Source of the DNA: an uncultured Thermoleophilia bacterium | GTDB lineage: Bacteria > Actinomycetota > Thermoleophilia > UBA2241 | NCBI GenBank assembly: GCA_963829205.1 | Contig: CAWHHT010000005.1 | Span: 8,082 to 72,081 of the forward strand | Reading direction: 5' to 3' | DNA length: 64,000 bases | In this document: in pieces, positions 10,940 to 30,977 of the stretch | Layout of the letters: every line of letters begins with the position of its first letter | Numbering within the stretch: position 1 is the first letter of the stretch | Notes under the pieces: generated by a model | Databases searched by the model: none | What the model was told of the DNA's origin: nothing | Seen by the model: only the letters and a program-made list of their open reading frames with translations | Program-made: the position numbers and the translations under genes

Positions 10940-12247
10940 TCAGCAGAGGTCGTCGACGGCCGCGTCCGTCGGCAGGCCGGCCGTGACCGGCTCCGCCGGC
11001 AGATGGCCGGCCCGCCGGGCCTGCGCGGCCCGCATCGCTTCAAGCGCGGCCGGGAAGGGCTGCAGCGCGCGCTCGAAGATCCCGAGGCTGAAGGCGATCA
11101 CCAGCCCGTAGTTGGTGATCGGTACGCCCGCCTGCTTGCAGCGCAGGATGCGCCCCAGCATCGCGCGCCTGTTGAAGGTGCAGGCGCCGCAGTGGACGAT
11201 CAGGTCCCAGCCGGACGGGTCGTCGGGGAAGTCGTGCCCCTGCATGTGCTCGATGTTGAGCTTGCCGCCCACGTACTGGGTGAGCCAGCGCGGGATCTTG
11301 ACGCGCCCGATGTCCTCGGCGATGGGGTGGTGGCTGCAGGCCTCGGCGATGAGCACGTTGGCGCCGCTCTTGAGGTCGTCCACCGCCAGCGTGCCCTCGA
11401 CCTGGCTCACAAGGTCGCCCTTGAAGCGGCTGAAGAGGATGCTGAAGCTCGTCATCGGCACCTCGGGCGGCGTGTCGGCCGCCACCTTGAGGAAGGCCTG
11501 CGAGTCGGTGACGACGAGCTTCGGCGGCACCGTGAGGCGCTCGAAGGCGCTGCGGAGCTCACGCTCCTTGACCACGAGCGCCAGCGCGTCGCTGTCCATG
11601 AGGTCGCGGATGCTCTGCACCTGCGGCAGGATCAGGCGCCCGCGCGGCGCCTCCTTGTCGATCGGTACCACGAGCACGGCGAGCTCGCCGCTGTTGACGA
11701 GGTCGCCGAGGATCGTCGGGTTGTCGATGAAGTCCGGGGGCGCCGCGTCGAGCAGCGCCTGGCGGAAGTCGAGCACTCCGCGGCCCTCGCTCGCGGCGGT
11801 CAGCACCGGCGCGATCTTGAGCTCCTGCAGCCGCGGCACCGGCGCCGGCTTGCCGACCAGATCGCACTTGTTGAACACCACCACGACCGGCGCCTTGCGC
11901 TCGAGCAGCTCGTCGAGGATGCCGTCCTCGTACTCGCCCCAGCTGCCGGCCTCGGTGACCAGCACGCCGAGGTCCGTGCGGTCGAAGACCTGCGTCGTGC
12001 GTCTGGCGCGCAGCTCGCCGAGGACGCCGACGTCGTCGATGCCGGCGGTGTCGATGAACAGCACGGGGCCCAGAGGCAGGAGCTCCATCGGCTTCTCGAC
12101 GGGGTCCGTGGTCGTGCCGGCGAAGTCCGAGACGATGCTGACGTCCTGTCGCGTGATGGCGTTGAGCAGGCTGCTCTTGCCGACGTTGCGGCGGCCGAAG
12201 ATGCCGATGTGCAGCCGCATGCCGCGGGGTGCGTCCATCAGGCCCAT
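10940..12247 (-). CDS. hydF: [FeFe]-hydrogenase H-cluster maturation GTPase HydF
   Basis: G1 motif GRRNVGKSS, G3 motif DTAG, NKCD, and C-terminal cluster-binding CSHH...HCGAC. Confidence 0.9.
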   Translation of the reverse strand: MGLMDAPRGMRLHIGIFGRRNVGKSSLLNAITRQDVSIVSDFAGTTTDPVEKPMELLPLGPVLFIDTAGIDDVGVLGELRARRTTQVFDRTDLGVLVTEAGSWGEYEDGILDELLERKAPVVVVFNKCDLVGKPAPVPRLQELKIAPVLTAASEGRGVLDFRQALLDAAPPDFIDNPTILGDLVNSGELAVLVVPIDKEAPRGRLILPQVQSIRDLMDSDALALVVKERELRSAFERLTVPPKLVVTDSQAFLKVAADTPPEVPMTSFSILFSRFKGDLVSQVEGTLAVDDLKSGANVLIAEACSHHPIAEDIGRVKIPRWLTQYVGGKLNIEHMQGHDFPDDPSGWDLIVHCGACTFNRRAMLGRILRCKQAGVPITNYGLVIAFSLGIFERALQPFPAALEAMRAAQARRAGHLPAEPVTAGLPTDAAVDDLC

Positions 12248-12250
12248 GAG

Positions 12251-13681
12251 CTAGTCCTCCACCGGGCGCCCGAGCGGCTGCGGGTGGCCGAGGCGGCACA
12301 CGGCCTCCGGCGTGAGCAGCTCCTCGTAGGCCTCGGCCGTCAGCAGCCCGTCGGCGACGACGACGTCGCGGATCGTCTCTCCCCGCTCGGCGGCCTTTGC
12401 GACCACGGCGCAGGCCGCCTCGTAGCCGATCTCCGGCACCAGCGCCGTGGCGGCCGCGCTCGAGGCCCGGACGTGCGCGGCGCAGCGCTCTTCGTCGGCC
12501 TCGATGCCCTCGACGCAGTTGCGGCGCAGCGTCTCGCAGGCGCGGGCAAGCAACGTGAGGCTGTCCAGCAGGCAGGTCGCGACGAGGGGCAGGAACGCGT
12601 TGAGCTCGAGGCTGCCGAGGCCGCAGGCGGCGGCGATGGTGGCGTCGTAGCCCATGACGAGCAGCGCCACCTGGCTCACGGCCTCCGGGATCACCGGGTT
12701 GACCTTGCCGGGCATGATGCTGGAGCCGGCCTGCCGCCGCGGCAGGCGGATCTCGCCGAGCCCCGCCTCCGGCCCCGAGCTCATCAGCCGCAGGTCGCCG
12801 CAGATCTTGAGGAGGTTGACCGCGTGCGCCTTGAGGATGCCCGAGACCTCCACGAACACGTCGGCGTTCTGCGTGGCCTCGGTGAGGTTCTCGGCGCGCG
12901 CGAAGCCCACGCCGGTGAGCTCACGCAGCGTGTCGACGACGCGGAAGATGTACTGGCGCGGCGCGCCGAAGCCGGTGCCGATGGCGGTGCCGCCGAGGTT
13001 GACCACGCGCAGGCGCTCCTCGCACTTGTAGATGCGCCAGCGGTCGCGGTTGAGCGCCTCGGCGTAGGCGCCCATCTCGCGCCCGAGCGTGGTGAGGACG
13101 GCGTCCTGGTACTGCGTGCGGCCGACCTTGACGACGTGCGCGAACTGCTGCTCCTTCTGCTGGAACGCCTCCTGCAGGGTGACGACCTGGTCCTCCAGGC
13201 GGTGGAGCAGGGTGATCGCCGCCAGGCGCAGTGCGGTGGGGAAGGTGTCGTTCGTGCTCTGGTGGAGGTTGACGTCGTCGAGCGGCGAGACGCGGGCATA
13301 CGTCCCCAGCGGCTCGCCGAGCAGCTCCAGGGCGCGGTTGGCCAGCACCTCGTTCACGTTCATGTTGGTGCTGGTGCCGGCGCCGCCCTGCAGACGGTCG
13401 ACGACGATCTCGGCCGCGAGCCCGCCGTCGGCCAGCTCGCGGCAGGCGCGCTCGATGGCGTCCGCCTTGGCGTCATCCGCGGCCCAGGCGCCGAGCGCCC
13501 GGTTGGTGCGCGCGCAGGCGAGCTTGACCATGCCGAAGGCGCGGGCGAGCTCCGGGTGCACCGGCTCGCCCGCGAGCGGGAAGTTGTCGAGGGCGCGCTC
13601 GGTGTGCGCGCCGTGCAGGCTCTGCGCCGGCACGGCGACCTCACCGAGCAGGTCGCGCTCGATCCTCGTCTCGTCGCTCAC
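12251..13681 (-). CDS. aspA: Aspartate ammonia-lyase (aspartase/fumarase superfamily)
   Basis: GGAGTSTNMNVNEV (aspartase-type, not the SGSGTQ of fumarase), HQSTNDTFP, and GSSIMPGKVNPVIPE signature. Confidence 0.85.
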   Translation of the reverse strand: MSDETRIERDLLGEVAVPAQSLHGAHTERALDNFPLAGEPVHPELARAFGMVKLACARTNRALGAWAADDAKADAIERACRELADGGLAAEIVVDRLQGGAGTSTNMNVNEVLANRALELLGEPLGTYARVSPLDDVNLHQSTNDTFPTALRLAAITLLHRLEDQVVTLQEAFQQKEQQFAHVVKVGRTQYQDAVLTTLGREMGAYAEALNRDRWRIYKCEERLRVVNLGGTAIGTGFGAPRQYIFRVVDTLRELTGVGFARAENLTEATQNADVFVEVSGILKAHAVNLLKICGDLRLMSSGPEAGLGEIRLPRRQAGSSIMPGKVNPVIPEAVSQVALLVMGYDATIAAACGLGSLELNAFLPLVATCLLDSLTLLARACETLRRNCVEGIEADEERCAAHVRASSAAATALVPEIGYEAACAVVAKAAERGETIRDVVVADGLLTAEAYEELLTPEAVCRLGHPQPLGRPVED

Positions 13682-13714
13682 GGACGGCTCGTGGGGTCGG
13701 GCGGCTGGTCGGAG

Positions 13715-13975
13715 TCAGTGGTGGAACACCATCTTCTGGACGCCGACGCCCTCGACGCCGTTGAGCTTGGCCATCATCGCCGAGGCTTCGTCCTCTGAGC
13801 CGAAGAACTCGATGAGCACCACGCCACTCGGCGAGCAACTGCGCTCGTCGACGTCGTGCAGGCCGATGCGCGTCTTGATGTTGCAGCCGTACTCGGTGAA
13901 GACCTTCTGCACCTCCACCGCGTTCTTGAGCCGGTCGCTGATGTGGATGCCGAGGATGATGTGGTCGTCGTTCAC
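13715..13975 (-). CDS. TM1266-like small ACT/NikR-C-like protein associated with [FeFe]-hydrogenase maturation genes
   Basis: AAGGAGGAG RBS, then GTG at 13975. The 86-aa product reads VNDDHIILGIHISDRLKNAVEVQKVFTEYGCNIKTRIGLH. It sits between hydG and aspA. Confidence 0.6.
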   Translation of the reverse strand: MNDDHIILGIHISDRLKNAVEVQKVFTEYGCNIKTRIGLHDVDERSCSPSGVVLIEFFGSEDEASAMMAKLNGVEGVGVQKMVFHH

Positions 13976-14019
13976 GGTCCTGTCTCCTCCTTGGTCGTTG
14001 GCTGCCGGCGCGAGCTCGC

Positions 14020-15423
14020 TCAGCAGAGCACGTCGCGCTCGCCGCCCCGCACCTTGTCCAGCATCTTCTGGGTGTGGGCGCGACGCACGTCGTCCATCTC
14101 GCGCACGCGCTGCTCGATGAGCTTCTCGCCGATCTCGCGCGTGCTCTCCGTGCCGTAGTCGAGGAGGTACTCCTCGAAGGTCGCCAGCGCGTTGGGGTCG
14201 CAGTGATGCTTGATGTCGCCGGGCTTGGCGAGGTCCATGAAGTCCATGCCGGTGCGGCCGAGCCGGTAGCAGGCGGTGCAGAACGAGGGCACGTACCCGA
14301 GCTCGGCGACGTCGCGGATGACCTCGTCGAGCGAACGGTGGTCGCCGAGCTGGAACTGCGCCGAGTCGAACTTCTCGTTCTCCTCGTAGCCGCCGGGGTT
14401 GGTGCGGCTGCCGGCGGAGATCTGGCTGACGCCGAGCGCGAAGGTCTCGCGGCGCAGGTTGGCCGTCTCCCGGGTGCTCATGATCATGCCGGTGTACGGC
14501 ACGGAGAGGCGCAGGATGGCGACGATCTTGCGGAAGTCGATGTCGCCGACCGGCTGTGGCGGGTGGCTCGCCATGTCGGAGCCGCTGGCCGGCTCCAGGC
14601 GCGGCATGCTGATCGTGTGCGGCCCGACGCCGAAGGCGCGCTCGAGCTCGCGCACGTGCTGCATGAGCGCGAGCAGCTCGAAGCGCCAGTCGTAGAGGCC
14701 GAAGAGCACGCCGATGCCGACGTCGTCGATGCCGGCCTCCATGGCGCGGTGCATCCCGGTCACGCGCCAGTCGTAGTCCTTCTTCCTGCCGCCCAGGTGC
14801 ACGGCCGCGTACGTGGCGCGGTGGTAGGTCTCCTGGAAGAGCTGGAAGGTCCCGATGCCGGTGGCCTTGAGGGCCTTGAAGTCCGGCACGGAGAGAGGCG
14901 CGATGTTGACGTTGACGCGGCGGATCTCGCCGTTGCCGCGTTTGACCTCGTAGATGGTGGCGATCGAGTCGAGCACGTAGCCGAAGCCCTGCTTGGGATA
15001 GGACTCCCCGGCCACGAGGAGGATGCGCTTGTGACCCTGGTCGACGAGCAGCTCGGTCTCGTGGCGGATCTCCGCCTGGGTGAGCGCGCGGCGCTTGAGC
15101 TCCTTGTTGCGCACGCGGAAGGCGCAGTACATGCAGTCGTTGCTGCACAGGTTGCTGATGTACAGCGGCGCGAAGAGGACCAGGCGCGGGCCGTAGATGG
15201 CGTCCTTGACGTCGCGCGCCGCGGCGAACAGCTCGCCGAGCAGCTCGGGGTCGCTCACCGAGCTGAGGATGGCCACGTCTTCCATGTCGAGACCCTTGAG
15301 CTCGCGCGCCTTGGCGAGGATCTCGCGCACGCGACCTGCGTCTTTGGTGGAGGCCGCCCCAAGGGCTTCGCCGATGGCGGCCTCGTCGATGAACGCTCCC
15401 GTTTCCACGACTCTGGTGCTCAT
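14020..15423 (-). CDS. hydG: [FeFe]-hydrogenase H-cluster radical SAM maturase HydG
   Basis: Radical SAM motif CSNDCMYC and C-terminal cluster region SFCTACYR. 467 aa, typical HydG length. GAGGAG RBS. Confidence 0.9.
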   Translation of the reverse strand: MSTRVVETGAFIDEAAIGEALGAASTKDAGRVREILAKARELKGLDMEDVAILSSVSDPELLGELFAAARDVKDAIYGPRLVLFAPLYISNLCSNDCMYCAFRVRNKELKRRALTQAEIRHETELLVDQGHKRILLVAGESYPKQGFGYVLDSIATIYEVKRGNGEIRRVNVNIAPLSVPDFKALKATGIGTFQLFQETYHRATYAAVHLGGRKKDYDWRVTGMHRAMEAGIDDVGIGVLFGLYDWRFELLALMQHVRELERAFGVGPHTISMPRLEPASGSDMASHPPQPVGDIDFRKIVAILRLSVPYTGMIMSTRETANLRRETFALGVSQISAGSRTNPGGYEENEKFDSAQFQLGDHRSLDEVIRDVAELGYVPSFCTACYRLGRTGMDFMDLAKPGDIKHHCDPNALATFEEYLLDYGTESTREIGEKLIEQRVREMDDVRRAHTQKMLDKVRGGERDVLC

Positions 15424-16882: not shown

Positions 16883-18820
16883 TTACTTCTGCGGGATGTA
16901 CTTGCCGCGCGCCGTGTAGCTGGTGTGCAGCAGCTCGTGGCTCTTGTGCCCGCACGGACCGTCGGTGAGGAACTCCTCGTAGGTCTTGGCCACCGCCGGG
17001 TTCTCGTAGGACTTGCGCACGCTGTACGCCTTGTCCTCGGAGTAGATGGCCTTGGCGCGGGCGGCGCGGATCTCGGCGTTGGTCGGGATCGGCTGGCCAC
17101 CGCCGCCCAGGCAGCCGCCCGGGCAGGCCATGAACTCGATGAAGTGGCATTCGCTGAACTTGCCGCCGGCCTTGATGTCTTCCATGACCTTCTTGGCGTT
17201 GGCGGTGCCGTGAGCCACGGCGACCTTGACGGTGACGCCGTCGAGCCAGTTCCAGTCCGGGACGAGGTGGGCGAGGATCGCCGGCACCGGCCCGACCTTG
17301 GGGATCGTGATCTCGGCGTAGCGCACGCCCTCGAAGCCGCGCACGGGGATGATGTCGCCGTGCTCGTAGATGCTCTCGACCTTCTCGCCGGTGACCAGCT
17401 CGATGACGGTCCGCAGGGCACTCTCCATCACGCCGCCGGTGGCGCCGAAGATCACGCCGGAGCCGGTGGCCGTGCCGAACGGGTCGTCGAAGTCGCTCTT
17501 GGGCAGGCTCGGCACATGCAGGCCGGCCTCCTTGAACATCTTGCCGAGCTCGCGCGTGGTGATGCCGAAGTCGACGTCCTTGAAGCCCGAGTCGTGCATC
17601 TCGGGCCGGTTGCACTCGAACTTCTTGGCCGAGCAGGGCATGAGCGCGCAGCTCACGATGCTGGCCGGGTCCACGCCCAGCTTCTCGGCGTAGTAGGTCT
17701 TGATCAACGCGCCGAACATCTGTTGCGGGCTCTTGGCGGACGAGGCGTTGGGCAGGTACTCGGGGTAGAAGTGCTCGAGGTACTTGACCCAGCCAGGCGA
17801 GCAGCTCGTGAACTGCGGCAGGGCCACGTCCTTGTCCCCTTCGACGAGGGCGCCATAGAGCCGCTTGATGAGCTCGGTGCCCTCCTCGATGATCGTGAGG
17901 TCGGCGGTGAAGTTGGTGTCGAAGACACGGTCGAAGCCGGCGCGGCGCAGGGCCGTGTTCATCTCGAACGTCACCGGCGTGCCGGGCTCGAGGCCAAAGA
18001 GCTCGCCCATCGCGGCGCGTGGCGCCGGCGCGGTCTGGATGACGACGTGCTTCTCTGGGTCGTCAAGAGCGGCCCAGACGGCGTCGGTCTCATCCTTGGC
18101 GTACAGGGCGCCGGTGGGGCAGCGGTTGACGCACTGGCCGCAGTTGATGCACACGACGTTGCCGAGCGGCAGGTCTTCAAAGGTGGCGATCTGCGTTTCG
18201 GCGCTGCGGTTGATGGCCTCGAGCACGCCCACTTCCTGCAGGTCGATGCAGGTGCGCACGCAGCGGCGGCAGCGGATGCACTTGTCCATGTCGCGCATCA
18301 CGGAGTAGCTGGAGAAATCGGGCTCGAACTGGGACTCGTCCGGGTGCCCGAAGGTGAAGTCGGTGATGCCGTATTCCTCGGCCAGCGTCTGCAGCTCGCA
18401 GTTGCCGTTGCGCACGCAGCTGTAGCACTCGCCGTAGTGCTCGCTGAGGAGCAGCTCGAGCACGTGGCGGCGCGCCTTGCGCACCTTGCGCGTGTGCGTG
18501 TTCACGGTCAGCGTGTTGGTGACCGGGTAGACGCAGGCGGCCTGCAGCGTGCGCTGGCCCTCGAGCTCGACCACGCACATGCGGCACACGCCGGCGACCT
18601 TGAGGTCCGGGTGGTTGCAGAGCGTGGGGATGTCGACGCCCACCGCCTTGGCGGCGTCGAGGATGGTCATGCCGAACGGCACTCTGGTCTCGATCCCGTC
18701 GATGGTGACGGACACGAGCGCGCCGATGGCCTCGGGGTTGTCGGAGACCGGTACCGTGCTCCCGACCTGGCTGGGCGGGATGCGCGGGGCTTTCTCGTCG
18801 TTTCTCGGCTGGTCGCTCAT
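16883..18820 (-). CDS. hydA: [FeFe] hydrogenase catalytic subunit HydA (NuoG-like N-terminus, group A NuoEF-linked type), copy 1, intact
   Basis: Start MSDQPRN at 18820. The 2Fe-2S N-domain reads VTIDGIETRV...LCNHP...GVCRMCVVE. There are 2x 4Fe-4S motifs. H-cluster motifs are FTSCSPGW, MPCSAKKFE and FMACPGGCLGGGGQP. Confidence 0.9.
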   Translation of the reverse strand: MSDQPRNDEKAPRIPPSQVGSTVPVSDNPEAIGALVSVTIDGIETRVPFGMTILDAAKAVGVDIPTLCNHPDLKVAGVCRMCVVELEGQRTLQAACVYPVTNTLTVNTHTRKVRKARRHVLELLLSEHYGECYSCVRNGNCELQTLAEEYGITDFTFGHPDESQFEPDFSSYSVMRDMDKCIRCRRCVRTCIDLQEVGVLEAINRSAETQIATFEDLPLGNVVCINCGQCVNRCPTGALYAKDETDAVWAALDDPEKHVVIQTAPAPRAAMGELFGLEPGTPVTFEMNTALRRAGFDRVFDTNFTADLTIIEEGTELIKRLYGALVEGDKDVALPQFTSCSPGWVKYLEHFYPEYLPNASSAKSPQQMFGALIKTYYAEKLGVDPASIVSCALMPCSAKKFECNRPEMHDSGFKDVDFGITTRELGKMFKEAGLHVPSLPKSDFDDPFGTATGSGVIFGATGGVMESALRTVIELVTGEKVESIYEHGDIIPVRGFEGVRYAEITIPKVGPVPAILAHLVPDWNWLDGVTVKVAVAHGTANAKKVMEDIKAGGKFSECHFIEFMACPGGCLGGGGQPIPTNAEIRAARAKAIYSEDKAYSVRKSYENPAVAKTYEEFLTDGPCGHKSHELLHTSYTARGKYIPQK

Positions 18821-20028
18821 GCTGTGGTCCTCGCGCTCTCGGCCTGGGCGGTTCGGCTCATGACCTCGTCGCCGAAGTGCTCCAGGATGGACATGAAGGC
18901 GTTGGAGCTCGTCTGGCCGAGGCCGCACTTGGACGCGACCTGCATCGTGCCGCTGAGCTCGCGCAGCTCGGCGACGTACTCCGCGGAGCAGGTCCCCTCC
19001 TTGAGCTGCCGGGCCGCCTCGAGCATCTTGACGTTGCCGAGGCGGCACGGGGTGCACTGGCCGCACGACTCGTCGACGAAGAACTCGAGGAAGTTCTCGG
19101 CCACGTCGAGCATGTCGCGCTGCGGGCCGAACACCATGACCGAGCCGCCCGTGGGGATGTCCTCGAAGGCCATCTGGCGGGCGAACTGCTTGCGTGGCAC
19201 GCAGGTGCCCGAGGCGCCGCCGATCTGCACGGCCTTGGCGTCCTCTCCGCCGACCTCCTTGAGCAGGTCGGCGACGGTGATCCCGAACGGGAACTCGTAG
19301 ACGCCGGGCCTGGCGCAGTCGCCCGAGACGCTGAACAGCTTGAAGCCGGTCGAGCGGTCTGTACCGAAGCTCTTGAACCAGTCGACGCCCTTGGCGAAGA
19401 TGCAGGCCGCCGAGGCGAGCGTCTCGACGTTGTTGACCACCGTCGGCGCGTAGCGGTAGCCGGCCACGACGGGGAACGGCGGGCGGTTGCGCGGCTCGCC
19501 GCGGAAGCCCTCGAGGGACTCGATGAGGGCCGTCTCCTCGCCGCAGATGTAGGCGCCGGCGCCGAGGGCGACGATGATGTCGAAGTCGAAGCCCTTGACG
19601 CCGCCGACGTCCTTGCCCAGCAGGCCGGCGGCGCGCCGCTTCTTGATGACCGCGTTGAGGTGCGAGCGCAGGTACGTGTACTCGCCGCGCAGGTAGACGA
19701 TGCCCTCGCTGGCGCCGATGGCGCGGCCGCCGATCGTCATGCCGGCGAACACGAGGTCCGCGAACTCGGTGAGGATGACGCGGTCCTTGAAGGTACCGGG
19801 CTCACCCTCGTCGGCGTTGCAGATGATGTACTTCTTGTCGCCCTTCTCAGAACCGCAGAAGTTCCACTTCATCCCGGTCGGGAAGCCGGCGCCGCCGCGG
19901 CCCTTCATGCCGGAGGCGGTGACCATGTCGATGATGTCCGGGCGCGACAACGCGAGGGCGGCCTTGAGGCCGGCATCCCCGTCGATGGAGGCGAAGGTGA
20001 GGGTGTTGCCCTGAGTCTCGATGCTCAT
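18817..20028 (-). CDS. hydB: NuoF-like flavoprotein subunit HydB (minimal form, 403 aa), copy 1
   Basis: Start MSIETQG at 20028. [37 protein letters not shown]. It lacks the N-terminal thioredoxin-like domain and the C-terminal ferredoxin domains. Confidence 0.85.
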   Translation of the reverse strand: MSIETQGNTLTFASIDGDAGLKAALALSRPDIIDMVTASGMKGRGGAGFPTGMKWNFCGSEKGDKKYIICNADEGEPGTFKDRVILTEFADLVFAGMTIGGRAIGASEGIVYLRGEYTYLRSHLNAVIKKRRAAGLLGKDVGGVKGFDFDIIVALGAGAYICGEETALIESLEGFRGEPRNRPPFPVVAGYRYAPTVVNNVETLASAACIFAKGVDWFKSFGTDRSTGFKLFSVSGDCARPGVYEFPFGITVADLLKEVGGEDAKAVQIGGASGTCVPRKQFARQMAFEDIPTGGSVMVFGPQRDMLDVAENFLEFFVDESCGQCTPCRLGNVKMLEAARQLKEGTCSAEYVAELRELSGTMQVASKCGLGQTSSNAFMSILEHFGDEVMSRTAQAESARTTA

Positions 20029-20546
20029 ACGAGGTACCCCTCTTTGCGCTCGGCCGTGTGCCCGCTGTAGGCGGCACGGCACTCGGCCGCGATCTCGCGC
20101 ACCACGTCGGGCGTGACGCGCGTGTAGACCTTGTCGTTGACGAGCAGGGCCGGGCCCTGGTCGCACATGCCCATACAGGCCGCCCAGTCGAGCGAGAAGC
20201 GGCCGTCGGCCGAGGTCTCGCCGAAGCCGATGCCGAGCTCGCCCTCGAGCGCCTGGGCGACGGCGTCCTTGCCGGCCAGGTCGCAGGAGATCGTGCCGCA
20301 CAGGCGCACGACGAACTCGCCCTGGGGCTCTGGATTCAGGAAAGCGTAGAACGTGGCGACGCTGTAGACCTCTACCGGGTGGATGTCGAGCAGGTCCGCG
20401 ACGATCTGCATCGCGTCCGTGTCGACGCCGTGGTAGCGGCTCTTGACAGCTTGAAGAATCGGTATGAGCGAGCTCCGGCCGGGCCCCAGCTTGTCCACCA
20501 GGGCGGTGACGTCGGTGCGGAGCTGCTCCTGCTGCGTGACCAGCAT
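20025..20546 (-). CDS. hydC: NuoE-like [2Fe-2S] subunit HydC, copy 1
   Basis: LCGTISC...CMGMC thioredoxin-like ferredoxin motifs. ATG at 20546 lies 9 nt after AAGGAGAG. The ORF-track TTG start at 20555 is the alternative. Confidence 0.85.
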   Translation of the reverse strand: MLVTQQEQLRTDVTALVDKLGPGRSSLIPILQAVKSRYHGVDTDAMQIVADLLDIHPVEVYSVATFYAFLNPEPQGEFVVRLCGTISCDLAGKDAVAQALEGELGIGFGETSADGRFSLDWAACMGMCDQGPALLVNDKVYTRVTPDVVREIAAECRAAYSGHTAERKEGYLV

Positions 20547-20551
20547 TTGCG

Positions 20552-20965
20552 TCAACTCTCCTTCGCGAGCAGCTTCTTGACCTTGGCGACGAGCGTCTGC
20601 GGGTCGACCGGCTTGGGCTGGAACTCGTCGACCGGGACCATCTCTTCGTCCTTGTCGATGTTGAGGCCCATCGCCGCGTTGACGCTCGTGAGCATGATGA
20701 TCGGCAGGGTGTGCCCCGCCTTGCGGATCTCGCGCGCCATGCGCAGGCCGTCGTCGGGCTCTTCCATCATGACGTCGAGGATGAGCAGGTCCGGACTTGC
20801 CTCCTCGAGCTTCAGCATGCCGGCGGCGCGATTGGGCGCCCCCTCGACCTCGTAGCCCTCGCGCTCGAGGACGAGGCGTCCGGCCTCGACGATGTCCGGG
20901 TCGTCGTCAACGATCAGGATCTTGGGCACCTCAGACTCCCTCTCTCGGTTACCGTTCCCCTCCAC
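20552..20965 (-). CDS. Stand-alone CheY-like response regulator receiver (no output domain), first gene of hydrogenase operon 1
   Basis: KILIVDDDPDIV...DLLILDVMM...LTS...K motifs; 137 aa. Confidence 0.85.
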   Translation of the reverse strand: MEGNGNRERESEVPKILIVDDDPDIVEAGRLVLEREGYEVEGAPNRAAGMLKLEEASPDLLILDVMMEEPDDGLRMAREIRKAGHTLPIIMLTSVNAAMGLNIDKDEEMVPVDEFQPKPVDPQTLVAKVKKLLAKES

Positions 20966-22495: not shown

Positions 22496-22497
22496 CG

Positions 22498-24553
22498 TCA
22501 GGTCTCCGTGATCTCCTGCAGGCTCGCCGGCGTGTCGAGCTCCGCCTCGAAGCGCGGCAGGACGATGGTGAAGGTCGTCTGGGTCGGCCCCTTGGCGGGA
22601 TCGGCGTTGGACTCCACGGTGATCTGGCCGCGGTGCATCTTGACGATCCCGTGCGTCACCGCGAGGCCGAGGCCCGTGCCCTTGCCGACCTGCTTGGTCG
22701 TGAAGAACGGGCTGAACAACTTGTCGAGGTTCTCGTCGGGGATGCCCGTGCCCGAGTCCGAGACCATGACGACGACGTTCTCGGAAGTGCCGTCGAGGGT
22801 GATGAGGATCCTGCCGCCGTCCGGCATGGCGTGCTGCGCGTTCGTGAGCAGATTGGCGAGCACCTGGACGATCTGGTCGGCGTCGACTTCGGCGATGGGG
22901 TCGGTGAGGCGGTCCTCGACTTCCACGTCGACCCCTTCGTCGATGGGGACCGTGCGCAGCACGTCCTGCACGAGGGCGGCGAGGTCGGTGGGCTGCCGGA
23001 CGACGCGGCTCTGGCGCGCGAAGTTGAGCAGCCCGGAGATGATCTTCTTGCAGCGGTTCGCCTGGTCGACGATCAGTTTGACGTCCTCGGCGACGGCCGC
23101 ATCGTCCTCACAGTCCTCGAGCAGCAGGTTGGCGTGCAGCAGGAGGATGCCGAGCGGGTTGTTGACCTCGTGGGCGATGCCGGCCGCGAGCTGGCCCATG
23201 CTCGCCAGCTTCTCGCTCTTGACCAGCGCCTCCTTGGTGCTGGCCAGCGAGCGGTTGGACTCCTGCAGCTCGTCGACCGCCTTGCGCAGCTCCTCGACCG
23301 AGTACGGCAGGCACATCTCGGCCTCGGCCAGGCCCTGCCAGATCGCCACCGCGTGGTCGTGGCAGGTCTCGTAGCCGCAGGCGCCGCAGTCGAGCTCGTC
23401 CTCGGGCGTGAACTTGTTCATGCGCGCCAGGATCTCGCGCAGCTCGGCCGCCGTCGGCATGTCGTCGAAGCGCTGGTCGAACGGCGCGAAGGTGCGCGAG
23501 AGGTCGATGGCCCGGTAGCGCGCCACGTCCGCCTCCCAGGCCTCGGTGTCGAAGAGGCTCTGGCGCGCGCGCGTCTCGCGGCTCACGTCCGAGCGGCGCT
23601 TGAACACCGGCGCCTCGCAGCTGAAGCCGGCGCCCATGATGCAGCCCTCGCAGCAGAGGATGTCGAGCAGCCGCGCCTCGGTCTCGCCGTGCTCGAAGTC
23701 GGTGATGGCGTCGGCGAGGTTGGCGCGGCCGTCGGCGCTCACGATGTCGCCGTCGAGCAGGTCCTCGCTGAGGGCGGCCGCCTGCAGCATCCCGCGCGTG
23801 ATGGGGAAGAGGGCGCCGAGGCTGCCGTGCGGCGCGTCGAAGTCGTCGTGGTCGTTCTGCGGCGTGCAGGCTGATGCCTCTGGCGGCGAGCATCGTGCGC
23901 AGCTCCACGTAGGTGAGCGCCGCGTCGACCTCGCCTTCGAACTGCTCGTAGGAGGCCTCGCCCTTCTTGGCGATGCAGGGCCCGATGAACACGACCTTGA
24001 CGCCATCGGGCCCGTACCTGTCGTGCAGCACGCGCGCCGTGGCGAGCATCGGCGAGACGATCGGCGCCAGCCTGTCGAGCAGGTCGGGGTGGTACTTGCG
24101 CACGTAGCTCACGACCGCCGGGCAGGTGGTGGCCACCCAGCGGCCGGCGCCGCGCTCCAGGAGCCGCCTGTACTCGGCCGCCACGAGATCCGCTCCGAAG
24201 GCGACCTCGTGCACGTGCGCGAACCCGAGGGTGCGCAGCGCCGCGACCAGCGCGCCGGTGTCGCACTCGGCGAACTCGGCCGGGTAGCTGGGCGCGACGA
24301 TGGCGGCCACCGGCGCGGGACCCGCCAGCAACTTCTCGGTGTCCTCGATCCCGCTCAGCACCTGCTTCGCGTTCTGGCTGCAGACGGTGACGCAGTTGCC
24401 GCAGCCGATGCAGCGCGTCTGGATGACGCTCGCCTGGCCGTCGAGGATCTGGATCGCCTTGGCCGGGCATTCGCGCACGCAGGTGTAGCAGACGCGGCAC
24501 TTCTCGCCGATGGTGGTGACGAGCTGGGTATAGGCGACGTCGTCGTCGTTCAT
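22498..24553 (-). CDS. Sensory [FeFe]-hydrogenase-like domain fused to a histidine kinase (HydS-type H-domain + HisKA + HATPase); one frame break near 23860-23870
   Basis: 2x 4Fe-4S motifs (CRVCYTCVRECP, CIGCGNCVTVC). H-cluster-like motifs TTCPAV, GPCIAKKGE and CCEGCIMGAG. Also CGACGYETCHDH, HisKA AHEVNNPL, and HATPase GTGLGLAV. The N-part is in the frame of ORF 23108..24553 and the C-part in the frame of ORF 22498..24006. Confidence 0.8.
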
Positions 24554-24574
24554 CGGGCTCTCGTGCCGGCTTCC

Positions 24575-24982
24575 TCAGCCGGCGCGGCCGAGGAGCTCCC
24601 CGACCTTGGCGAGGAGCGCGTCCGCCGGGATCGGCTTGTCGAAGTACGCGTCGACGCGCATCTTGACGAGGTCCTCGTCCGACTCCGGCCGCAGATTGAG
24701 GCCGAGCTGGCTGCTGACCGACGTGGAGATGATGATCGGCACGGCCGCCGTGCGCGCGTCGTCCTTGAGCTGGGCCGAGAACGCGAAACCGGCGTCGATG
24801 CTGGTCATCATCAGGTCGGTGATGACCAGGTCCGGCACCTCCTCGTCGACGCGCTTGAGCGCCTCGGCGGGATTGGTCGCGGTCGTCACGCGGTAGCCGG
24901 CGCCCTCGAGGATGAAGCGGTTGATCTCGAGGAAGTCGTAGTCGTCGTCGACGATCAGTATGAGGGCCTGTTCAGCGGTCAT
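24575..24982 (-). CDS. Stand-alone CheY-like response regulator receiver
   Basis: LILIVDDDYDF...DLVITDLMM...K; 135 aa with no output domain. Confidence 0.85.
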   Translation of the reverse strand: MTAEQALILIVDDDYDFLEINRFILEGAGYRVTTATNPAEALKRVDEEVPDLVITDLMMTSIDAGFAFSAQLKDDARTAAVPIIISTSVSSQLGLNLRPESDEDLVKMRVDAYFDKPIPADALLAKVGELLGRAG

Positions 24983-25040
24983 CGTGTGCTCTCAAGTATA
25001 GCCTCTCCGGCCTCGGCCTCCGGCCGCCTTCGGACTCGGC

Positions 25041-25104
25041 GGCGGCCCCGGGAGGCGACCCCGGTCGCCCGGGGCCGCCTCCGCGGCGGGCCGAAAGGCC
25101 CGCC
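25041..25104 (-). terminator. Two consecutive GC-rich hairpins downstream of hydA copy 2
   Basis: GGCGGGCC-GAAA-GGCCCGCC (25085..25104) and GGCGGCCCCGGG-15 nt-CCCGGGGCCGCC (25041..25079), read directly. Confidence 0.45.
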
Positions 25105-25135: not shown

Positions 25136-26912
25136 TCAGACGCGGTCGTGCTCGAAGTAGTGCGTGTGCAGCAGGTGGTGCGAGATCTCGCCGCACGGCG
25201 CCCCGAGGTACTCGTCGTACAGGGCGCAGACGGCCGCGTTCTCGTGCGACTTGCGCACCTCGCGGCCCTCGTCCTCGCGGTAGATCGCGCGCCATGCGCG
25301 CCTTGCGCACCTCGTTGGTGGTGAAGCGCGGCTGGCCGCCGCCGCCGATGCACCCGCCGGGGCAGGTCATGACCTCGACGAAGTGGCACTCGATCTCGCC
25401 GCTCTTGACCCGGTCGATGAGCTTCTGCGCGTTGCCGAGGCCGTGGGCCACGCCGACCTTGAGGTCGGCGCCTTCGAGGAACGCCCAGTCGCCCTTGGCG
25501 CCCTCGACCTTGACGGTCGCCATCTTGACGCCTTCGAGACCGACGATGGGCTCGACGTGCAGGTTGGGGAACGGGAACGGCGTCTCGGTGACGATCTCCC
25601 ACACGGTGCGCAGGGCCGCCTCCATGACGCCGCCGGTGTTGGCGAAGATGTCGGCGGCGCCGGTGCTGATGCCGAGCGGCGCGTCCATCTGCTCGTCGTG
25701 CAGGCCGCGGAAGTCGATGCCGGCCTGCTTGATCAGGGCGCCGAGCTCGCGCGTCGTGAGCACGATGTCGACGTCGCGCACGCCGCTGTCGTTCATCTCC
25801 GGCCGCGCCGCCTCGTACTTCTTGGCGGTGCAGGGCATGACCGAGACGACGACCATGTCCTCCGGCTTCACGCCGATCTTCTCGGCGTAGTAGGTCTTGG
25901 CGATCGCCCCGAACATCTGCTGCGGGCTCTTGCACGGTGCTGAGGTTGTCGAGCATGTCCGGGTTGAAGTGCTCCATGTAGTTGATCCAGCCCGGGGAGC
26001 AGCTGGAGAACTGCGGCAGACGCCACCGTCTCGCCGTCCACGAGGGCCTTCTTGAGCCGCACCAGCAGCTCGGTGCCCTCCTCCATGATGGTGAGGTCGG
26101 CGGTGAAGTCGGTGTCGAACACCGCGTCGAAGCCGAGGCGGCGGAGGGCGGCGACCATCTTGCCGGTCACCAGGGTGCCGGGCGCGTAGTCGAAGCACTC
26201 GCCGAGGGCGGCGCGGATGGCAGGAGCGGTCTGCACGATCACCGTCTTGGTGGGATCCTCGAGCGCGTCCCAGACCTCGTCGATCTGGTTGCGTTCCTGG
26301 ATCGCGCCCACGGGGCAGACGGCGGCGCACTGGCCGCACTGCACGCAGACGACGTCGCTGAGGTTCTGCCGCGAAGGCCGGGCCGATGAGCGTGGCGAAG
26401 CCGCGGCCCTGGGCGAAGAGGCCGCCCACTTGCTGGACCTCGTTGCAGACGGTGACGCAGCGGCGGCAGGAGATGCACTTGCCGGTGTCGCGCACGAGCG
26501 CCGGCGTGCTGTCGTCGATCATCTTGAACGTCTTCTCGCCCTGGTAGCGTAGCTCGCCGATGCCCAGGTCGAGAGCGAGGCTCTTGAGCTCGCAGTCGGC
26601 GGAGCGGCCGCAGACCTGGCAGTCGCCGTCGTGCTCCGAGAGGAGCAGTTCGACGACCATCTGGCGGCCGTCGCGCACCTTGCCGGTATTGGTCTTCACG
26701 ACCATGCCGTCGGTGGCCGGCTGGCTGCACGAGGCGACCAGCGTGCGGGCGCCTTCCACCTCGACGAGGCAGACGCGGCAGGCGCCGATGGACTGGACTT
26801 CGTCGAGGTAGCAGAGGGTCGGGATCTTCACGCCGGCCTGACGGGCGGCTTGAAGGACCGTAGTGCCCTCCGGGACCTCGACCTTGATGTCGTCAATGGT
26901 GAGGGTTGGCAT
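25136..26912 (-). pseudogene. hydA: [FeFe] hydrogenase catalytic subunit HydA, copy 2; conserved sequence recoverable only across 4 frame changes
   Basis: [16 protein letters not shown]...ACRVCLVEVEG, then CVQCGQCAAVCP (second frame). Then LPQFSSCSPGWINYMEHF (third frame). Then CKSPQQMF...MPCTAKKYE...VMTCPGGCIGGGGQP. Then IYREDEGREVRKSHENAAV...HTHYFEHDRV stop at 25136. Breaks lie near 26370, 26020, 25935 and 25290. Confidence 0.8.
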
Positions 26913-26930
26913 CCTTCAGCACTCCTTGCT

Positions 26931-29900
26931 TTACGAGCAGTACTTGCCGTAGTCGCAGCGCAGGCAGCGCCGTGCCTCGGCGATGGCTGTCTGTGCGGCC
27001 CAGCTGAGCTCGACCTCGTCGAAGTTGGAGACGCGCTGACCCACCGGCAGCTCCTCGACCGCATGGCGGTCGACAAGCTCCGGGTCGGCGTCGGGATCGA
27101 ATGACACGGGCGGCTCGATGTCGCGGCGCCAGAAGGCGTGGTTGGCGCCGGTCAGGTACTCGTCCATGCCCGCCGCCGCGCGCTCGCCGGCGCCGATGGC
27201 CTCGACCACCGAAGACGGGCCGGTGGTGGCGTCGCCGCCGGCGAACACCCACTCGGTCGACGTCTTGCCCGTGTCGGGGTCGGCGGAGAAGTAGCCCCAG
27301 CGGTTGAGCTCGATGGGCGTGCCGTCCACGATCGCCGGCGCGTCCAGGGACTGGCCGATGGCGGCGATCACGGTGTCGGCCTCGACCACGAAGTCGGGGT
27401 TGTGGCCGGCCACGGGGCGGCGACGACCACTCTTGTCGTAGTCGCCGAGCGCCATCTCCTTGCAGCGCACGCCGGTGACCTTGCCGCTCGCGTCGCGGAC
27501 GATCTCCTCCGGGGCCACGAGGGTGAGGATCTCGATGCCCTCGAGGTCGGCGGCGTCGATCTCCTCGCCCCACGCCGGCATCTGCGCGCGCGTGCGGCGG
27601 TAGAGGATCTTGACCGACTCGGCGCCGAGGCGCAGGGCGGTGCGGGCGGCGTCGATGGCCGCGTTGCCGCCGCCGATGACGGCGACGTTCTTGCCCACCT
27701 CGCCGGTGCCGCTGCACGTTGTACTGCTTGAGGAAGGAGAGCCCGTCGTACACGCCGGGGCCGTCCTCGCCGGGCACGCCGATCTTCATGCCCTGCGGGG
27801 CGCCGACACCGACGAACACGGTCTCGTAGCCCTCGTCCTTGAGGCTCTGCAGGGTGAAGTCGCGGCCGAGCGCCTTGCCGTACTCGAACGTGACGCCCAT
27901 GGCCTCGATCATCTTGACTTCGCGCTCGAGCTCCGGCCGCGGCAGGCGGTAGGCCGGGATGGCCTGCACGAGCATGCCGCCGGCCTTGGGCTCGGCCTCG
28001 AACACGACCGGCTTGTAGCCGAGGCGCGCCAGGAAGTAGGCGGCCGAGAGGCCGGCCGGCCCGGAGCCGACGACGGCGACCTTGCGGGCGGCGTTCTCGG
28101 CGTTCTCCTGGATCTCGGGCAGCTGCGGGTCCTGCTCCTGCTCCACCATGAAGCGCTTGACGTGGCGGATGGCGAGGGCCCCGTCGAGGCCGGCGCGCAT
28201 GCACTTGCTCTCGCAGGGATGGAAGCAGACGCGGGCGCAGATGCTGGCCAGCGGGTTGCGCTCGCGGTGCAGCTTGAGGGCCTCGTCGTACCGCTGCTCG
28301 CCGACGAGGCTCACGAAGCCGGGGATGTTGACGCTCGCCGGGCACGCGTTGGAGCAGCGCGCCTTGAACAGCGTGGCGCAGACGCCGGCCTCGCAGTACT
28401 TGTCCTTGATGTGGGCCTCGTACTCGTGACGGAAGTGGCGGATCGTCGAGAGCACGGGGTTGGGGGCCGTCTGGCCGAGGCCGCAGAGTGCGGTCTGGCT
28501 GATGGACTCGCCGAGGGCGATGAGGCGTTCGATGTCGCCTTCCTCGCCCTCGCCCTTGCAGATGCGGTCGACGATCTCGAGCATGCGCTTGGTGCCGACG
28601 CGGCAGGGCGGGCACTTGCCGCAGCTCTCTTCCTGGGTGAACTCGAGGAAGAACCTGGCGATGTCGACCATGCAGGTGTCCTCGTCCATGACGATGACGC
28701 CGCCGGAGCCCATGATGGCGCCCAGTTCCTGCAGGGTGGCGTAGTCGACCGGGACGTTGAGGTGCTGCTTGGGGATGCAGCCGCCGGACGGTCCGCCGAG
28801 CTGCGCGGCCTTGAAGGCCTTGCCGCCCGGGATGCCGCCGCCGATCTCGTAGATGAGCTCGCCGAGCTGCATGCCGATCGGCACCTCGACGAGGCCGGTG
28901 TGCTGCACGTTGCCGCCGAGCGCGAACACCTTGGTGCCCTTGCTCTTCTCGGTGCCCGTGCTGGCGTACCACTCGGCGCCCTTGAGGATGATCGGGGCGA
29001 TGTTGGCGAAGGTCTCGACGTTGTTGAGCACGCTGGGCTTGCCCCAGAGGCCCGAGACCGCCGGGAACGGCGGGCGCGGGCGCGGCTCGCCGCGGTGGCC
29101 CTCGATCGACGTCATGAGGGCCGTCTCCTCGCCGCAGACGAAGGCGCCCGAGCCCATGCGGATCTCGAGGTCGAAGTCGAAGCCGCTGCCCATGATGTCC
29201 TTGCCGAGCAGGCCGTACTCGCGCGCCTGCCCGAGCGGCGTGCTCGAGGCGCTCGACCGCGAGCGGATACTCGGCGCGCACGTAGACGTAGCCCTGGTGC
29301 GCGCCGATCGCGAAGGCGCCGATGACCATGCCCTCGATGAGCGAGTGCGGGTCGCCTTCGAGCACCGAGCGGTCCATGAACGCGCCCGGGTCGCCTTCGT
29401 CGGCGTTGCAGAGGATGTACTTGGTCTCGTTGTCCTGCTGCTGCGCGAAGCGCCACTTCATCCCGGTGGGGAAGCCGGCGCCGCCGCGGCCGCGCAGGCC
29501 GCTGGCGAGGACCTCGTCGACGACCGCTTCGGGCGTCATCGCGGTGAGCACCTTGGCGAGCGCCTGGTAGCCCTCGCGGGCGATGTACTCGTCGATCTTG
29601 AGCGGGTCGATGATGCCGGAGTTGCGCAGCACGATCTTCACCTGACGGTTGAAGAACGGGATGTCGCTCATCTCGGCCTGCGTCTTCTCGGTGCCGGGCG
29701 CGTGGCTCACGAGGCGCTCGACGATGCGCCCCTTGAGGAGGTGCTCCTCGACGATCTCGGGGACGTCGGCGAGCTGGACCTTCTGGTAGAACACGCCGTC
29801 CGGGTAGACGAGGGCGACCGGGCCCTGGACGCACGGTCCGAGGCAGCCGGTCTCGATGACCTCGACTTCGTCGGCGAGGTCGCGCGCCTTGAGCTCGGCC

Positions 29901-29986
29901 CGGACGGCCTCGCTCAGCTCGAGCGCTCCGGAGGCGATGCACCCGCCGCCGGTGCAGATCAGGAAGTGCGTTCTCACATCAGCCAT
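26931..29986 (-). pseudogene. NuoF-like flavoprotein fused to a GltD/NADPH-oxidoreductase-like module (about 1018 aa if repaired); 2 frame breaks
   Basis: Thioredoxin-like 2Fe-2S N-domain (HFLICTGGGC...GCLGPC). NuoF core ([37 protein letters not shown]). GltD part (CSNACP...[51 protein letters not shown]). Breaks lie near 29235 and 27710. Confidence 0.8.
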
Positions 29987-30003
29987 AGTCGTGTCACTCG
30001 CTC

Positions 30004-30375
30004 TCAGGTCTTGATCAGGTAGGCGTCGACGGGAGTGCCGCCCACGAGGTGATTGCGGACGATGGTGTGCACCTTCTCCCGGTCGAGCAGGCCGTACCGG
30101 TAGATGGTCCCGTCGGCGAGCGTGACGGTGGCCATGGGCTCTTCCTCGCAGAGACCGGCGCAGCCGGTCTGATGCAGGCTCACCGAGGTCACGCCGGCGT
30201 CCGACATCTCGGTCATGAACGCGGCGACCACGTCGCGCGCGCCGGCGGCGATGCCGCAGGTGCCCATGTGGACGGTGACCTGGGACTCCTTGCGTCCCTG
30301 GCGCAGGTCGATGTCGGCCTTGGCCTTCTCGGCCATCGCCAGCAGCTGATCGGGGCTGGTGATCTTGTCGGCCAT
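30004..30375 (-). CDS. Thioredoxin-like [2Fe-2S] ferredoxin (HndB-like small subunit)
   Basis: MADKITSPDQL...VTVHMGTCGIAAGA...QTGCAGLCEEEP; intact. Confidence 0.7.
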   Translation of the reverse strand: MADKITSPDQLLAMAEKAKADIDLRQGRKESQVTVHMGTCGIAAGARDVVAAFMTEMSDAGVTSVSLHQTGCAGLCEEEPMATVTLADGTIYRYGLLDREKVHTIVRNHLVGGTPVDAYLIKT

Positions 30376-30376
30376 G

Positions 30377-30977
30377 TCAGGCGCTCCTCGGGCTGCCCGC
30401 GAATTGCTCCGCAGGCTGGTCAGCCGAACGCCGCTCACTGCGTCCGCTCGTTTCCGCGAGCACGGGCTCCTCGGCGTACTGCGCCAGGATCTCGTGCACG
30501 CGCTTGGGCTTGACGCGGTGGTGGACGTCGTCGTCCACGGTGATGACGGGCGCGAGGCCGCAGGCGCCGAAGCAGCGTGCGATCTCGAGCGAGAACAGCG
30601 CGGTCCTCGGTGGTGCCGCCGATGTCGATGCCGAGCTGCTTCTTGAAGGCGTCGAGCACCTGGACGCCGCCGCGCACGTAACAGGCGGTCCCCATGCAGA
30701 TGCGGATCAGGTGCTTGCCGCGCGGGACGGTCGTGAAGAACGAGTAGAAGCCGACCACGCCGGCGACCTCGCTGTAGGGCTTGCCCAGCTCTCGGGCGAT
30801 GTGCTTGAGGGCGACCTCAGGCAGGTACCCGAAGATGCCCTGGGCGAGCTGCAGCACCGGGATGAGCGCCCCGGGCTTGCCTCTGTACTCGGCGATCACC
30901 GCGTCGAGGCGCGCGAGGAGCTCTTCCTCCGTCGGTTCCTCGTCGCAGCACGTGCACGCCTTGACCTCTTCACTCAT
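30377..30977 (-). CDS. NuoE-like [2Fe-2S] subunit, copy 2; one frame break near 30600
   Basis: IPVLQLAQ...ICMGTACYVRG...GGTTEDR, then in another frame LFSLEIARCFGACGLAPVITVDDD. The repaired reading ends at a TGA 1 nt before the ATG of the next gene. Confidence 0.8.

Follow-up and report, generated by a model that had tools for sequence, protein, structure and literature searches.

Only two group C or D [FeFe]-hydrogenases, TmHydS and TamHydS, have been characterised biochemically, and neither carries a fused output domain (PMC8163306, PMC13104023). H2 sensing is inferred for the entire group C. Fusion to a kinase is very common and has already been catalogued: HydDB (PMC5037454, 2016) lists C1 "histidine kinase-linked", C2 "chemotactic" and C3 "phosphatase-linked" enzymes, all putative, and an in silico study of 2024 (PMC11406978) describes a His-kinase protein of group C3, "BfuT", directly downstream of bfuA. 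BfuT is found in Hydrogenedentota, Caldithrix abyssi (HydDB WP_006928132.1) and cultured Bacteroidota, and some of its loci have a second bfuT upstream of bfuC; the same study places the His-kinase-fused form under C3 and a degenerate, HATPase-bearing form under C1 (PMC11406978). A study of 2026 called for the identification of interaction partners of sensory [FeFe] enzymes (PMC13104023). The question addressed here is whether group C/D [FeFe]-hydrogenases are true H2 sensors, and by what route the signal is passed on from the protein. We analysed hydS-HK, a gene in a 64,000-nucleotide stretch of DNA (the window) from contig CAWHHT010000005.1 of an uncultured Thermoleophilia bacterium, whose product joins a HydS-type sensor module to a histidine kinase. 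From sequence comparison and structure modelling we consider it probable (roughly 0.6) that hydS-HK is a cytoplasmic H2-responsive sensor kinase with a group C (HydS-type) [FeFe]-hydrogenase input. The gene is one of hundreds of equivalent candidates; what is added here is a cassette that spans phyla and encodes two receiver proteins, the variety of outputs on the sensor module and a heptad-locked 47-residue linker, which together lead to a testable mechanism.

The hydS-HK gene is 2056 nucleotides long (3n+1), and the repaired open reading frame (ORF) is 2055 nucleotides long. A first-pass annotation made from the letters alone had proposed one minus-strand polypeptide after a single frame repair, with two 4Fe-4S motifs, modified L1, L2 and L3 motifs, a further Fe-S motif, a coiled linker, HisKA and HATPase in this order. 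Pfam and alignments recover every one of these parts in that order, and the coordinates and strand are exact. The three profiles by which that annotation wished to be checked all score above cut-off on the repaired translation: Fe_hyd_lg_C (PF02906) at 163 bits over profile positions 2-245 of 245 (cut-off 22.1, E=1.3e-47), HisKA at 47.4 bits (cut-off 26.9) and HATPase_c at 89.6 bits (cut-off 26.4). The same Pfam scan gives 32 bits for FeS (PF04060). An H-domain that aligns to Fe_hyd_lg_C and the cluster-ligating cysteines, on which the annotation had staked its reading, are both present. The F-domain holds CxxCxxCxxxCP twice (C19/22/25/29 and C48/51/54/58), and CGACGYETCHDH occupies residues 389-400 of the C-terminal cluster motif, whose fourth Cys is at 414. 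For residues 433-670 the best NCBIfam matches are AtoS and ZraS (189 bits versus an equivalog cut-off of 646). This set of motifs is not a chance pattern. The protein has no Pfam match to a PAS domain, and a cryptic PAS between the C-terminal cluster and HisKA is ruled out by the presence of only one helix there.

Residue conservation was examined in 113 orthologues of 64-94% identity. In a HMMER alignment to solved group A enzymes, T143 lies opposite the first Cys of TSCCP (the proton relay) and C144 opposite a cluster ligand. Position 143 is Thr in 81 orthologues, Ser in 20, Pro in nine and Ala in three, and never Cys, in agreement with the earlier reading of Thr at the proton-relay position. 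The H-cluster ligand equivalents are C144 and C193 (both 113/113) and C301 and C304 (both 112/113). All eight F-domain Cys, K196, E199 and the four Cys of Cx2Cx4Cx16C are invariant, as are A87-P88-S89 and P168, which together with F249 (110/113) align to group A residues of the 2Fe subsite; in CpI we take Lys358 (the counterpart of K196), the APS/APA motif, Pro324 and Phe417 to line this pocket. The CpI numbering of the ligands (C300, C355, C499 and C503) follows PMC8163306 in part. G191 stands at the Met353 position and L299 at the Met497 position. With CxxC, the L3 motif has one residue fewer than its group A counterpart, and the second Cys of its "CC" is taken as the ligand because one orthologue (P0112) reads LACEGC. 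The N-terminal 430 residues are thus predicted, from alignment and model, to keep everything needed to hold an H-cluster, minus the catalytic proton-path Cys.

The catalytic group A models score far below cut-off (TIGR02512, 112 versus 406 bits; NF040763, 105 versus 765 bits), and hydS-HK has none of the features of a catalytic group A enzyme, namely the proton-relay Cys, Met353/Met497 and a model match. Features of group C (M2f) are found: two N-terminal [4Fe-4S] motifs, Cx2Cx4Cx16C, loss of the proton-relay Cys and a neighbouring multimeric group A3/A6 hydrogenase. Cx2Cx4Cx16C unites the two putatively sensory subclasses, M2f (group C) and M2e (group D) (PMC8163306), and the nearest non-kinase relatives of hydS-HK consist of Fer4x2, H-domain, FeS and PAS, which is the M2f architecture. 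This motif, Gly at M353 and the architecture of the nearest relatives bear out the HydS-type, group C affinity that had been proposed. Since the PAS domain is missing, hydS-HK is a group-C-type sensor module with another output rather than an M2f protein in the strict sense.

We modelled the protein with AlphaFold2 (AF2) from a diverse alignment (A2), with a predicted local distance difference test score (pLDDT) of 94.1 and a predicted template modelling (TM) score (pTM) of 0.76. This model supersedes a first run on a shallow orthologue alignment (A1), in which pLDDT was 70 and the F-domain and linker were poor. In Foldseek searches the sensor half matches DdH (TM 0.63-0.69), HydA of HydABC (TM 0.54) and also CbA5H, within a range of 0.5-0.69, and the transmitter half matches the cytoplasmic domain of ZraS (9jfj; TM 0.78-0.80, 33% identity). 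No solved structure of the HydS type was found among the PDB entries searched. In the model the two halves are joined by a single helix (residues 415-480, 66 residues, pLDDT 85-97), which starts right after C414 and includes H461. Residues L422, L429, L436, L443, A450 and A457 are invariant among the 113 orthologues and form a heptad series ending four residues before H461. In 77 of 79 genomic loci, drawn from many phyla, the last cluster Cys and this His lie 47 residues apart; in the other two the spacing is 40 residues. Among 32 representatives with short linkers, the length equals 47 plus or minus a multiple of seven in 27 (47 residues in 17, 40 in four, 54 in three, 33 in two and 68 in one), whereas about one in seven is expected by chance. 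We argue that a linker length quantised in heptads indicates a rigid coiled coil where register matters. The invariant 47-residue heptad linker thus offers a concrete, mutable hypothesis for signal transmission.

An exhaustive profile-free search with the 430-residue sensor module, counted at the 50%-cluster level, yielded 5378 relatives. Of these, 944 had E<1e-30, and the best 140 were classed by output. C-terminal tails were grouped by BLAST and Pfam was run on one or two members of each group, so that the class sizes rest on tail similarity. The output is PAS only in 57 of the 140 representatives (the classical HydS architecture), HisKA and HATPase in 49 (some with GAF, and one more with HisKA_3), Sigma54_activat and HTH_8 in 17 (some with PAS), GGDEF with or without an HD domain (HD-GYP-like HD_5) in four and MCPsignal in three. 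Examples of the sigma-54, GGDEF and MCP fusions are P0152, P0165, P0139, P0214 and P0168. In a neighbour-joining tree of the sensor module, 52 of the 57 PAS-only proteins form a clade of their own; fusions to kinase, sigma-54, GGDEF and MCP outputs do not separate from one another, and hydS-HK falls inside the kinase group. The ligand and pocket residues are kept in every output class: the equivalents of C300, C355, C499 and C503 are Cys in at least 98% of the 140 representatives, the Lys358 equivalent is mostly Lys and the Met353 equivalent is Gly. The equivalent of C299 is never Cys in the 49 kinase-class representatives, and it is Cys only among the PAS-type proteins (9/57). One input module shuffled onto many outputs is the usual signature of a sensor domain, and this range of outputs is new in this analysis. 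By its domain composition, the sigma-54 activator fusion would be a one-component H2-responsive transcription factor.

The genomic context was counted in the best 80 of 545 loci in species-representative genomes, all of which encode full-length proteins including the kinase (45-83% identity). These loci come from about 14 phyla: Thermoleophilia, Planctomycetota, Acidobacteriota, Desulfobacterota, Hydrogenedentota, Verrucomicrobiota/Victivallales, Myxococcota, Calditrichota, Bacteroidota, Fibrobacterota, Melainabacteria, Elusimicrobiota, Spirochaetota and Bdellovibrionota. HydA lies directly upstream of hydS-HK in 72 of the 80 and NuoF is present in 67; a stand-alone receiver adjoins the gene in 69, a receiver (REC)-kinase hybrid follows downstream in 71, and hydG comes after in 41. 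The cassette of hydCBA, hydS-HK, stand-alone receiver and receiver-kinase hybrid in about 14 phyla is new in this analysis, and its spread suggests a major route for anaerobes to tune H2 production.

In the window (Table 1), the minus strand carries, in order, Rex, the second HydS-like gene, a PHP phosphoesterase, a small HATPase protein, NuoE/NuoF-GltD/HydA of operon 1, a stand-alone REC, hydS-HK and a REC-kinase hybrid; after a gap of about 280 nucleotides follow REC/NuoE/NuoF/HydA of operon 2, the GAF kinase, HydG, the TM1266-like ORF, the aspartase-like gene and HydF. The locus as a whole has three kinases and three receiver domains. The placement of hydS-HK between two hydrogenase operons and among receivers, as first annotated, is accurate: both operons are of the group A [FeFe] type, and the three receiver domains lie within 2 kb. 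The 135-aa receiver upstream of hydS-HK is a candidate phosphotransfer partner. HydA of operon 1 (590 aa) belongs to group A6 by NF040763 (861 bits in the orthologue), and the sequence of the GltD/NAD(P)-binding oxidoreductase fusion suggests a second nicotinamide site in this hydrogenase; NuoF of operon 2 is plain (403 aa). No hydE was found among the window ORFs scanned, a scan that covered part of the ORFs. In the second HydS-like protein an RsbW/SpoIIAB-like HATPase_c_2 domain lies at the N-terminus; the protein also has two Fer4 motifs and the PF04060 FeS motif, and it retains only the first ~100 positions of Fe_hyd_lg_C, with "VCPAV" kept. It is similar to the "C1" proteins of PMC11406978 that bear a HATPase domain and have no clear H-cluster motifs.

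Table 1. Features of hydS-HK and its surroundings in the window (positions are those of the window; aa, amino acids; nt, nucleotides)
Feature	Position	Strand	Remarks
hydS-HK gene	22498..24553	minus	684 aa once one extra base is removed
F-domain, two ferredoxin-type [4Fe-4S] motifs, residues 16-62	24368..24508	minus	Pfam Fer4 families
H-domain Fe_hyd_lg_C, residues 81-308	23629..24313	minus	Pfam and structural match
L1 ATTCPAV, residues 141-147	24113-24133	minus	within H-domain
L2 GPCIAKKGE, residues 191-199	23957-23983	minus	within H-domain
L3 CCEGCIMGAG, residues 300-309	23626-23655	minus	within H-domain
Frame break	23859..23863	minus	one extra G at plus-strand 23861/23862 inside GCGGC; single-base excess versus L003 and L004
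C-terminal cluster motif Cx2Cx4Cx16C (C389, C392, C397, C414)	23311..23388	minus	Pfam FeS PF04060, residues 387-416
Signalling helix, residues 415-460	23173..23310	minus	AF2 model and heptad conservation
HisKA (DHp, dimerisation and histidine phosphotransfer), residues 452-514	23011..23199	minus	Pfam; motif AHEVNNPL
Phospho-acceptor H461	23170-23172	minus	within HisKA
HATPase_c, residues 557-667	22552..22884	minus	Pfam; N box N567/N571, G1 D599xGxG603, G2 G623-G629
Stand-alone receiver, 135 aa	24575..24982	minus	Response_reg 64.7 bits; 21 nt upstream of hydS-HK
Receiver-HisKA-HATPase hybrid, 417 aa	21242..22495	minus	starts 2 nt after hydS-HK stop codon
Second stand-alone receiver, 137 aa	20552..20965	minus	overlaps start of operon 2 nuoE
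Hydrogenase operon 1: nuoE-like, 123-aa ORF, NuoF-GltD fusion, HydA	25139..30977	minus	7 frame breaks
NuoF-GltD fusion, operon 1	26934-29986	minus	1017 aa in orthologues
Hydrogenase operon 2: NuoE, NuoF, HydA	16883..20555	minus	all intact; HydA 645 aa, NF040763 792 bits
GAF-HisKA-HATPase kinase, 444 aa	15452-16786	minus	directly after operon 2 hydA, before hydG
H-cluster maturation genes: hydG, TM1266-like ORF, aspartase-like gene, hydF	10940..15423	minus	profile matches
hydG	15423-14020	minus	TIGR03955 528 bits versus cut-off 312
hydF	12247-10940	minus	HydF domains
Second HydS-like gene	32658-34174	minus	521 aa in orthologue L001:460-2025; 2 frame breaks
Rex-type redox repressor gene	34455-35570	minus	heads locus

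Several further observations were made in the window. Two Rex-operator-like sites (TGTG-N9-TCACGA; 21157-21174 and 35275-35292, three mismatches each to TTGTGAANNNNTTCACAA) lie in the gap before operon 2 and upstream of rex, two matches where 0.21 are expected. The hybrid kinase has an in-frame 18-bp tandem duplication at its N-terminus (VTRESL VTRESL; 22467-22484), which is absent from the orthologous loci L003 and L004, and the hydA-1/receiver intergenic region (25049-25136) has extra G+C-rich segments of 32 and 42 nucleotides relative to L003. A promoter and terminator scan of 20400-25300 returned nothing, and such a scan is uninformative at ~70% G+C. On the 3′ side of the second HydS-like gene are a 117-aa ORF, the PHP phosphoesterase (32196-31521) and the HATPase protein (164 aa; 31525-31033). 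On the plus strand, close to the hydrogenase island but outside it, lies a non-homologous end-joining pair of Ku and a full-length LigD with phosphoesterase, ligase and primase-polymerase parts (4585-8094), and a polyphosphate kinase and a CYTH-CHAD protein are located at 41359-46191.

The frame break in hydS-HK is most likely an assembly or base-calling error, judging from comparison with its orthologues. The extra base on the coding strand is a C in GCCGC. The frame 0 ORF (24553..23108) is convincing up to residue 231 ("...LAARGISLHA") and the frame +1 ORF (24006..22498) from QNDHDDFDAPHG / QNDHDDFDAPHGSLG onward to the stop at 22498. Thermoleophilia genomes from metagenomes encode uninterrupted 684-aa orthologues (up to 94% identical), which read ARGISLHAQNDQDDFEAPHG through the break position, with P0001 reading ARGISLHAQNDQDDFEAPHGSLG, and their continuity supports the frame repair of the first-pass annotation. 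More than 100 clusters at the 90% identity level have the same Pfam architecture in 681-687 aa, the closest being 92-94% identical. The repaired gene is codon-collinear over its 2055 nucleotides with the intact genes of loci L001, L003 and L004, and intact orthologues collinear with it include P0001 (94% identity), P0002 and P0005. On the 3′ side of the break, after repair, differences from L003 fall 14, 13 and 65 times at codon positions 1, 2 and 3, and there are 57 synonymous and 26 non-synonymous codon changes. This codon-position bias and the synonymous excess show that the region 3′ of the break evolved as coding sequence in the repaired frame. Programmed frameshifting is ruled out, as the orthologues are uninterrupted.

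The break is one of many in its neighbourhood. When the orthologous proteins of L001 are mapped onto the window, 12 intragenic frame changes are found at 23.8-34.2 kb, all in the +1 direction, and none at 13.7-23.8 kb; they hit HydA-1, the NuoF-GltD fusion, NuoE, two regulators, the second HydS-like gene and hydS-HK. Seven of them can be aligned to L003 (93% nucleotide identity) and are single G/C insertions (29236, 27712, 26370, 26021, 25935, 25289 and ~23861), several of which create GCNGC. A scan based on G+C content at third codon positions adds two or three further breaks up to ~38 kb and essentially none elsewhere in the window. These ~12-15 breaks at 23.8-38 kb suggest a locally error-prone assembly stretch, possibly related to a methylation motif. 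Alternatively, the frameshift could be real and hydS-HK a true pseudogene, its sensor having been lost together with hydrogenase operon 1. Such decay would fit the break as it stands in the window sequence, the clustering of the breaks over operon 1, its regulators and hydS-HK, and the intact look of operon 2 and the rest of the window. We nevertheless regard it as decidedly unlikely: the 12 breaks share one direction, those that can be aligned include neither deletions nor stop-creating substitutions, the broken genes match their orthologues at up to 96% amino-acid identity, no less closely than the intact genes do, the codon-position bias continues past the break, and short-read assemblies of close relatives are intact. 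Related genomes come from long-read "contig_NNNN" assemblies, in which such errors would be plausible. One-directional G/C insertions with undiminished amino-acid identity make an artefact likelier than gene decay, and with the break a probable artefact the organism probably makes the full-length protein.

If hydS-HK is an H2-responsive sensor kinase, H2 would bind and be slowly oxidised at the H-cluster, with reduced states of the site stabilised, as is the case for TmHydS and TamHydS. A redox or conformational change in the H-domain and the C-terminal cluster domain would then make the rigid helix rotate or move like a piston, and this movement could switch autophosphorylation of H461 on or off, either sign being allowed. 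The phosphoryl group would pass to receivers of the same operon (the stand-alone REC, the REC-HisKA-HATPase hybrid or both) in a short relay that may adjust the flanking NADH/ferredoxin-linked hydrogenases to ambient H2, with Rex adding an NADH/NAD+ input. Because there is no DNA-binding output in ~70 of the 80 loci, the phosphorelay might end not in transcription but in protein-level control of the neighbouring bifurcating hydrogenase, with the signal conveyed mechanically via the 47-residue coiled coil. We consider this extended form unlikely as it stands; one route would be the binding of a phosphorylated single-domain receiver to HydABC, the second receiver gene overlapping the start of operon 2 nuoE. 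If true, a mechanical signal from the C-terminal [4Fe-4S] cluster would be a new coupling of a gas-binding metallocofactor to a kinase.

Several points weigh against H2-responsive kinase signalling by hydS-HK. The frame break is present in the sequence as given, the AF2 model shows a single chain although histidine kinases work as dimers, and there is no DNA-binding response regulator in the window locus or in the conserved cassette. In TamHydS, H2 leaves the C-terminal cluster unreduced (PMC13104023), which counts against the simple form in which redox drives the helix, and from this we infer that conformational coupling is favoured over redox coupling. In the literature searched there is no report of a group C or D enzyme signalling in response to H2, nor of H2-dependent kinase activity or phosphorylation or the biochemistry of a kinase-fused [FeFe] sensor, most subscription journals lying outside the search. 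The first-pass statement that kinase-linked group C enzymes are known from genomes only agrees with this literature (PMC5037454, PMC11406978, PMC13104023).

The sensor could also report redox state or electron pressure rather than H2, its Fe-S clusters responding to the ferredoxin/NADH pool, O2 or CO, with the hydrogenase fold reused as a scaffold as in Nar1/Narf-like proteins and the 2Fe subsite optional. The proton relay and both active-site methionines are indeed lost (T143, G191 and L299), one sensor holds four Fe-S sites, some "group C1" proteins have no recognisable H-cluster motifs (PMC11406978), and the fold degenerates within the same locus, where the second HydS-like gene keeps only the first third of the H-domain. 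Yet the four H-cluster Cys, the pocket Lys and the APS, P and F residues are kept across phyla and output classes, although a plain Fe-S sensor would not need them; the characterised relatives TmHydS and TamHydS both carry a working H-cluster and are reactive towards H2 (PMC8163306); and the gene is tightly linked to H2-metabolising enzymes, hydG and hydF. We therefore hold a pure redox sensor to be doubtful, though worth keeping in view. The invariance of the kinase residues bears on a further proposal, in which hydS-HK, as "BfuT", adds a fourth subunit to the bifurcating hydrogenase complex, either catalytic or structural, and its kinase domain has only an ATP-dependent or scaffolding role. 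This would suit its naming as the T subunit of sub-type V BfuABC clusters (PMC11406978) and its position, almost always directly after hydA. Among the 113 orthologues, however, the H-box His and the residues of the N, G1 and G2 boxes do not vary (H461, N567, N571, D599, G601, G603, G623, G625, G627 and G629), canonical receivers are co-operonic in ~70 of the 80 loci, and the occurrence of the same module on sigma-54, GGDEF and MCP outputs makes sense only for a signalling input. A subunit role is thus most improbable, and an H2-responsive sensor kinase remains our preferred reading of hydS-HK.

In its kinase half, hydS-HK is like the ZraS/AtoS/NtrB-type transmitters, but its input domain is entirely different and there is no NtrC-type partner nearby. 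The [NiFe] regulatory hydrogenases HoxBC-HoxJ-HoxA and HupUV-HupT-HupR (HydDB [NiFe] group 2b) follow the same logic, in which a slow, inhibitor-tolerant hydrogenase reports H2 to a kinase controlling hydrogenase genes (PMC5037454, PMC8163306). They differ in having an unrelated metal centre and fold, and a separate sensor and kinase joined via a PAS-like domain; they also end in an NtrC-type DNA-binding regulator, of which the hydS-HK locus has none. BfuT shares with hydS-HK the domain order and the place directly downstream of hydA of an NADH/ferredoxin-linked hydrogenase, and relatives in genomes of Calditrichota and Hydrogenedentota (L019, L026 and L027) are full-length, 51-54% identical and have the same neighbours. 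A second bfuT upstream of bfuC is an arrangement also seen in the window. In contrast to BfuT, hydS-HK has a Thermoleophilia host, a stand-alone receiver upstream rather than downstream and two hydrogenase operons in its locus, and the description of BfuT makes no mention of receiver partners (PMC11406978). TamHydS likewise has an F-domain, an H-domain and a C-terminal cluster and no PAS, and its gene has those of a bifurcating hydrogenase and a kinase-like ATPase as neighbours (PMC8163306, PMC13104023), but it has no fused output domain and carries Ser at M353 where hydS-HK has Gly. TmHydS resembles hydS-HK in its two N-terminal [4Fe-4S] clusters, the missing proton-relay Cys, Gly at M353, Cx2Cx4Cx16C and an adjoining bifurcating hydrogenase (PMC8163306). 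Whereas TmHydS ends in a PAS domain and needs separate partners, hydS-HK leads through a 47-residue coiled coil straight into HisKA/HATPase, and this direct fusion would give a one-protein readout in the form of H2-dependent autophosphorylation and transfer to the adjoining receivers.

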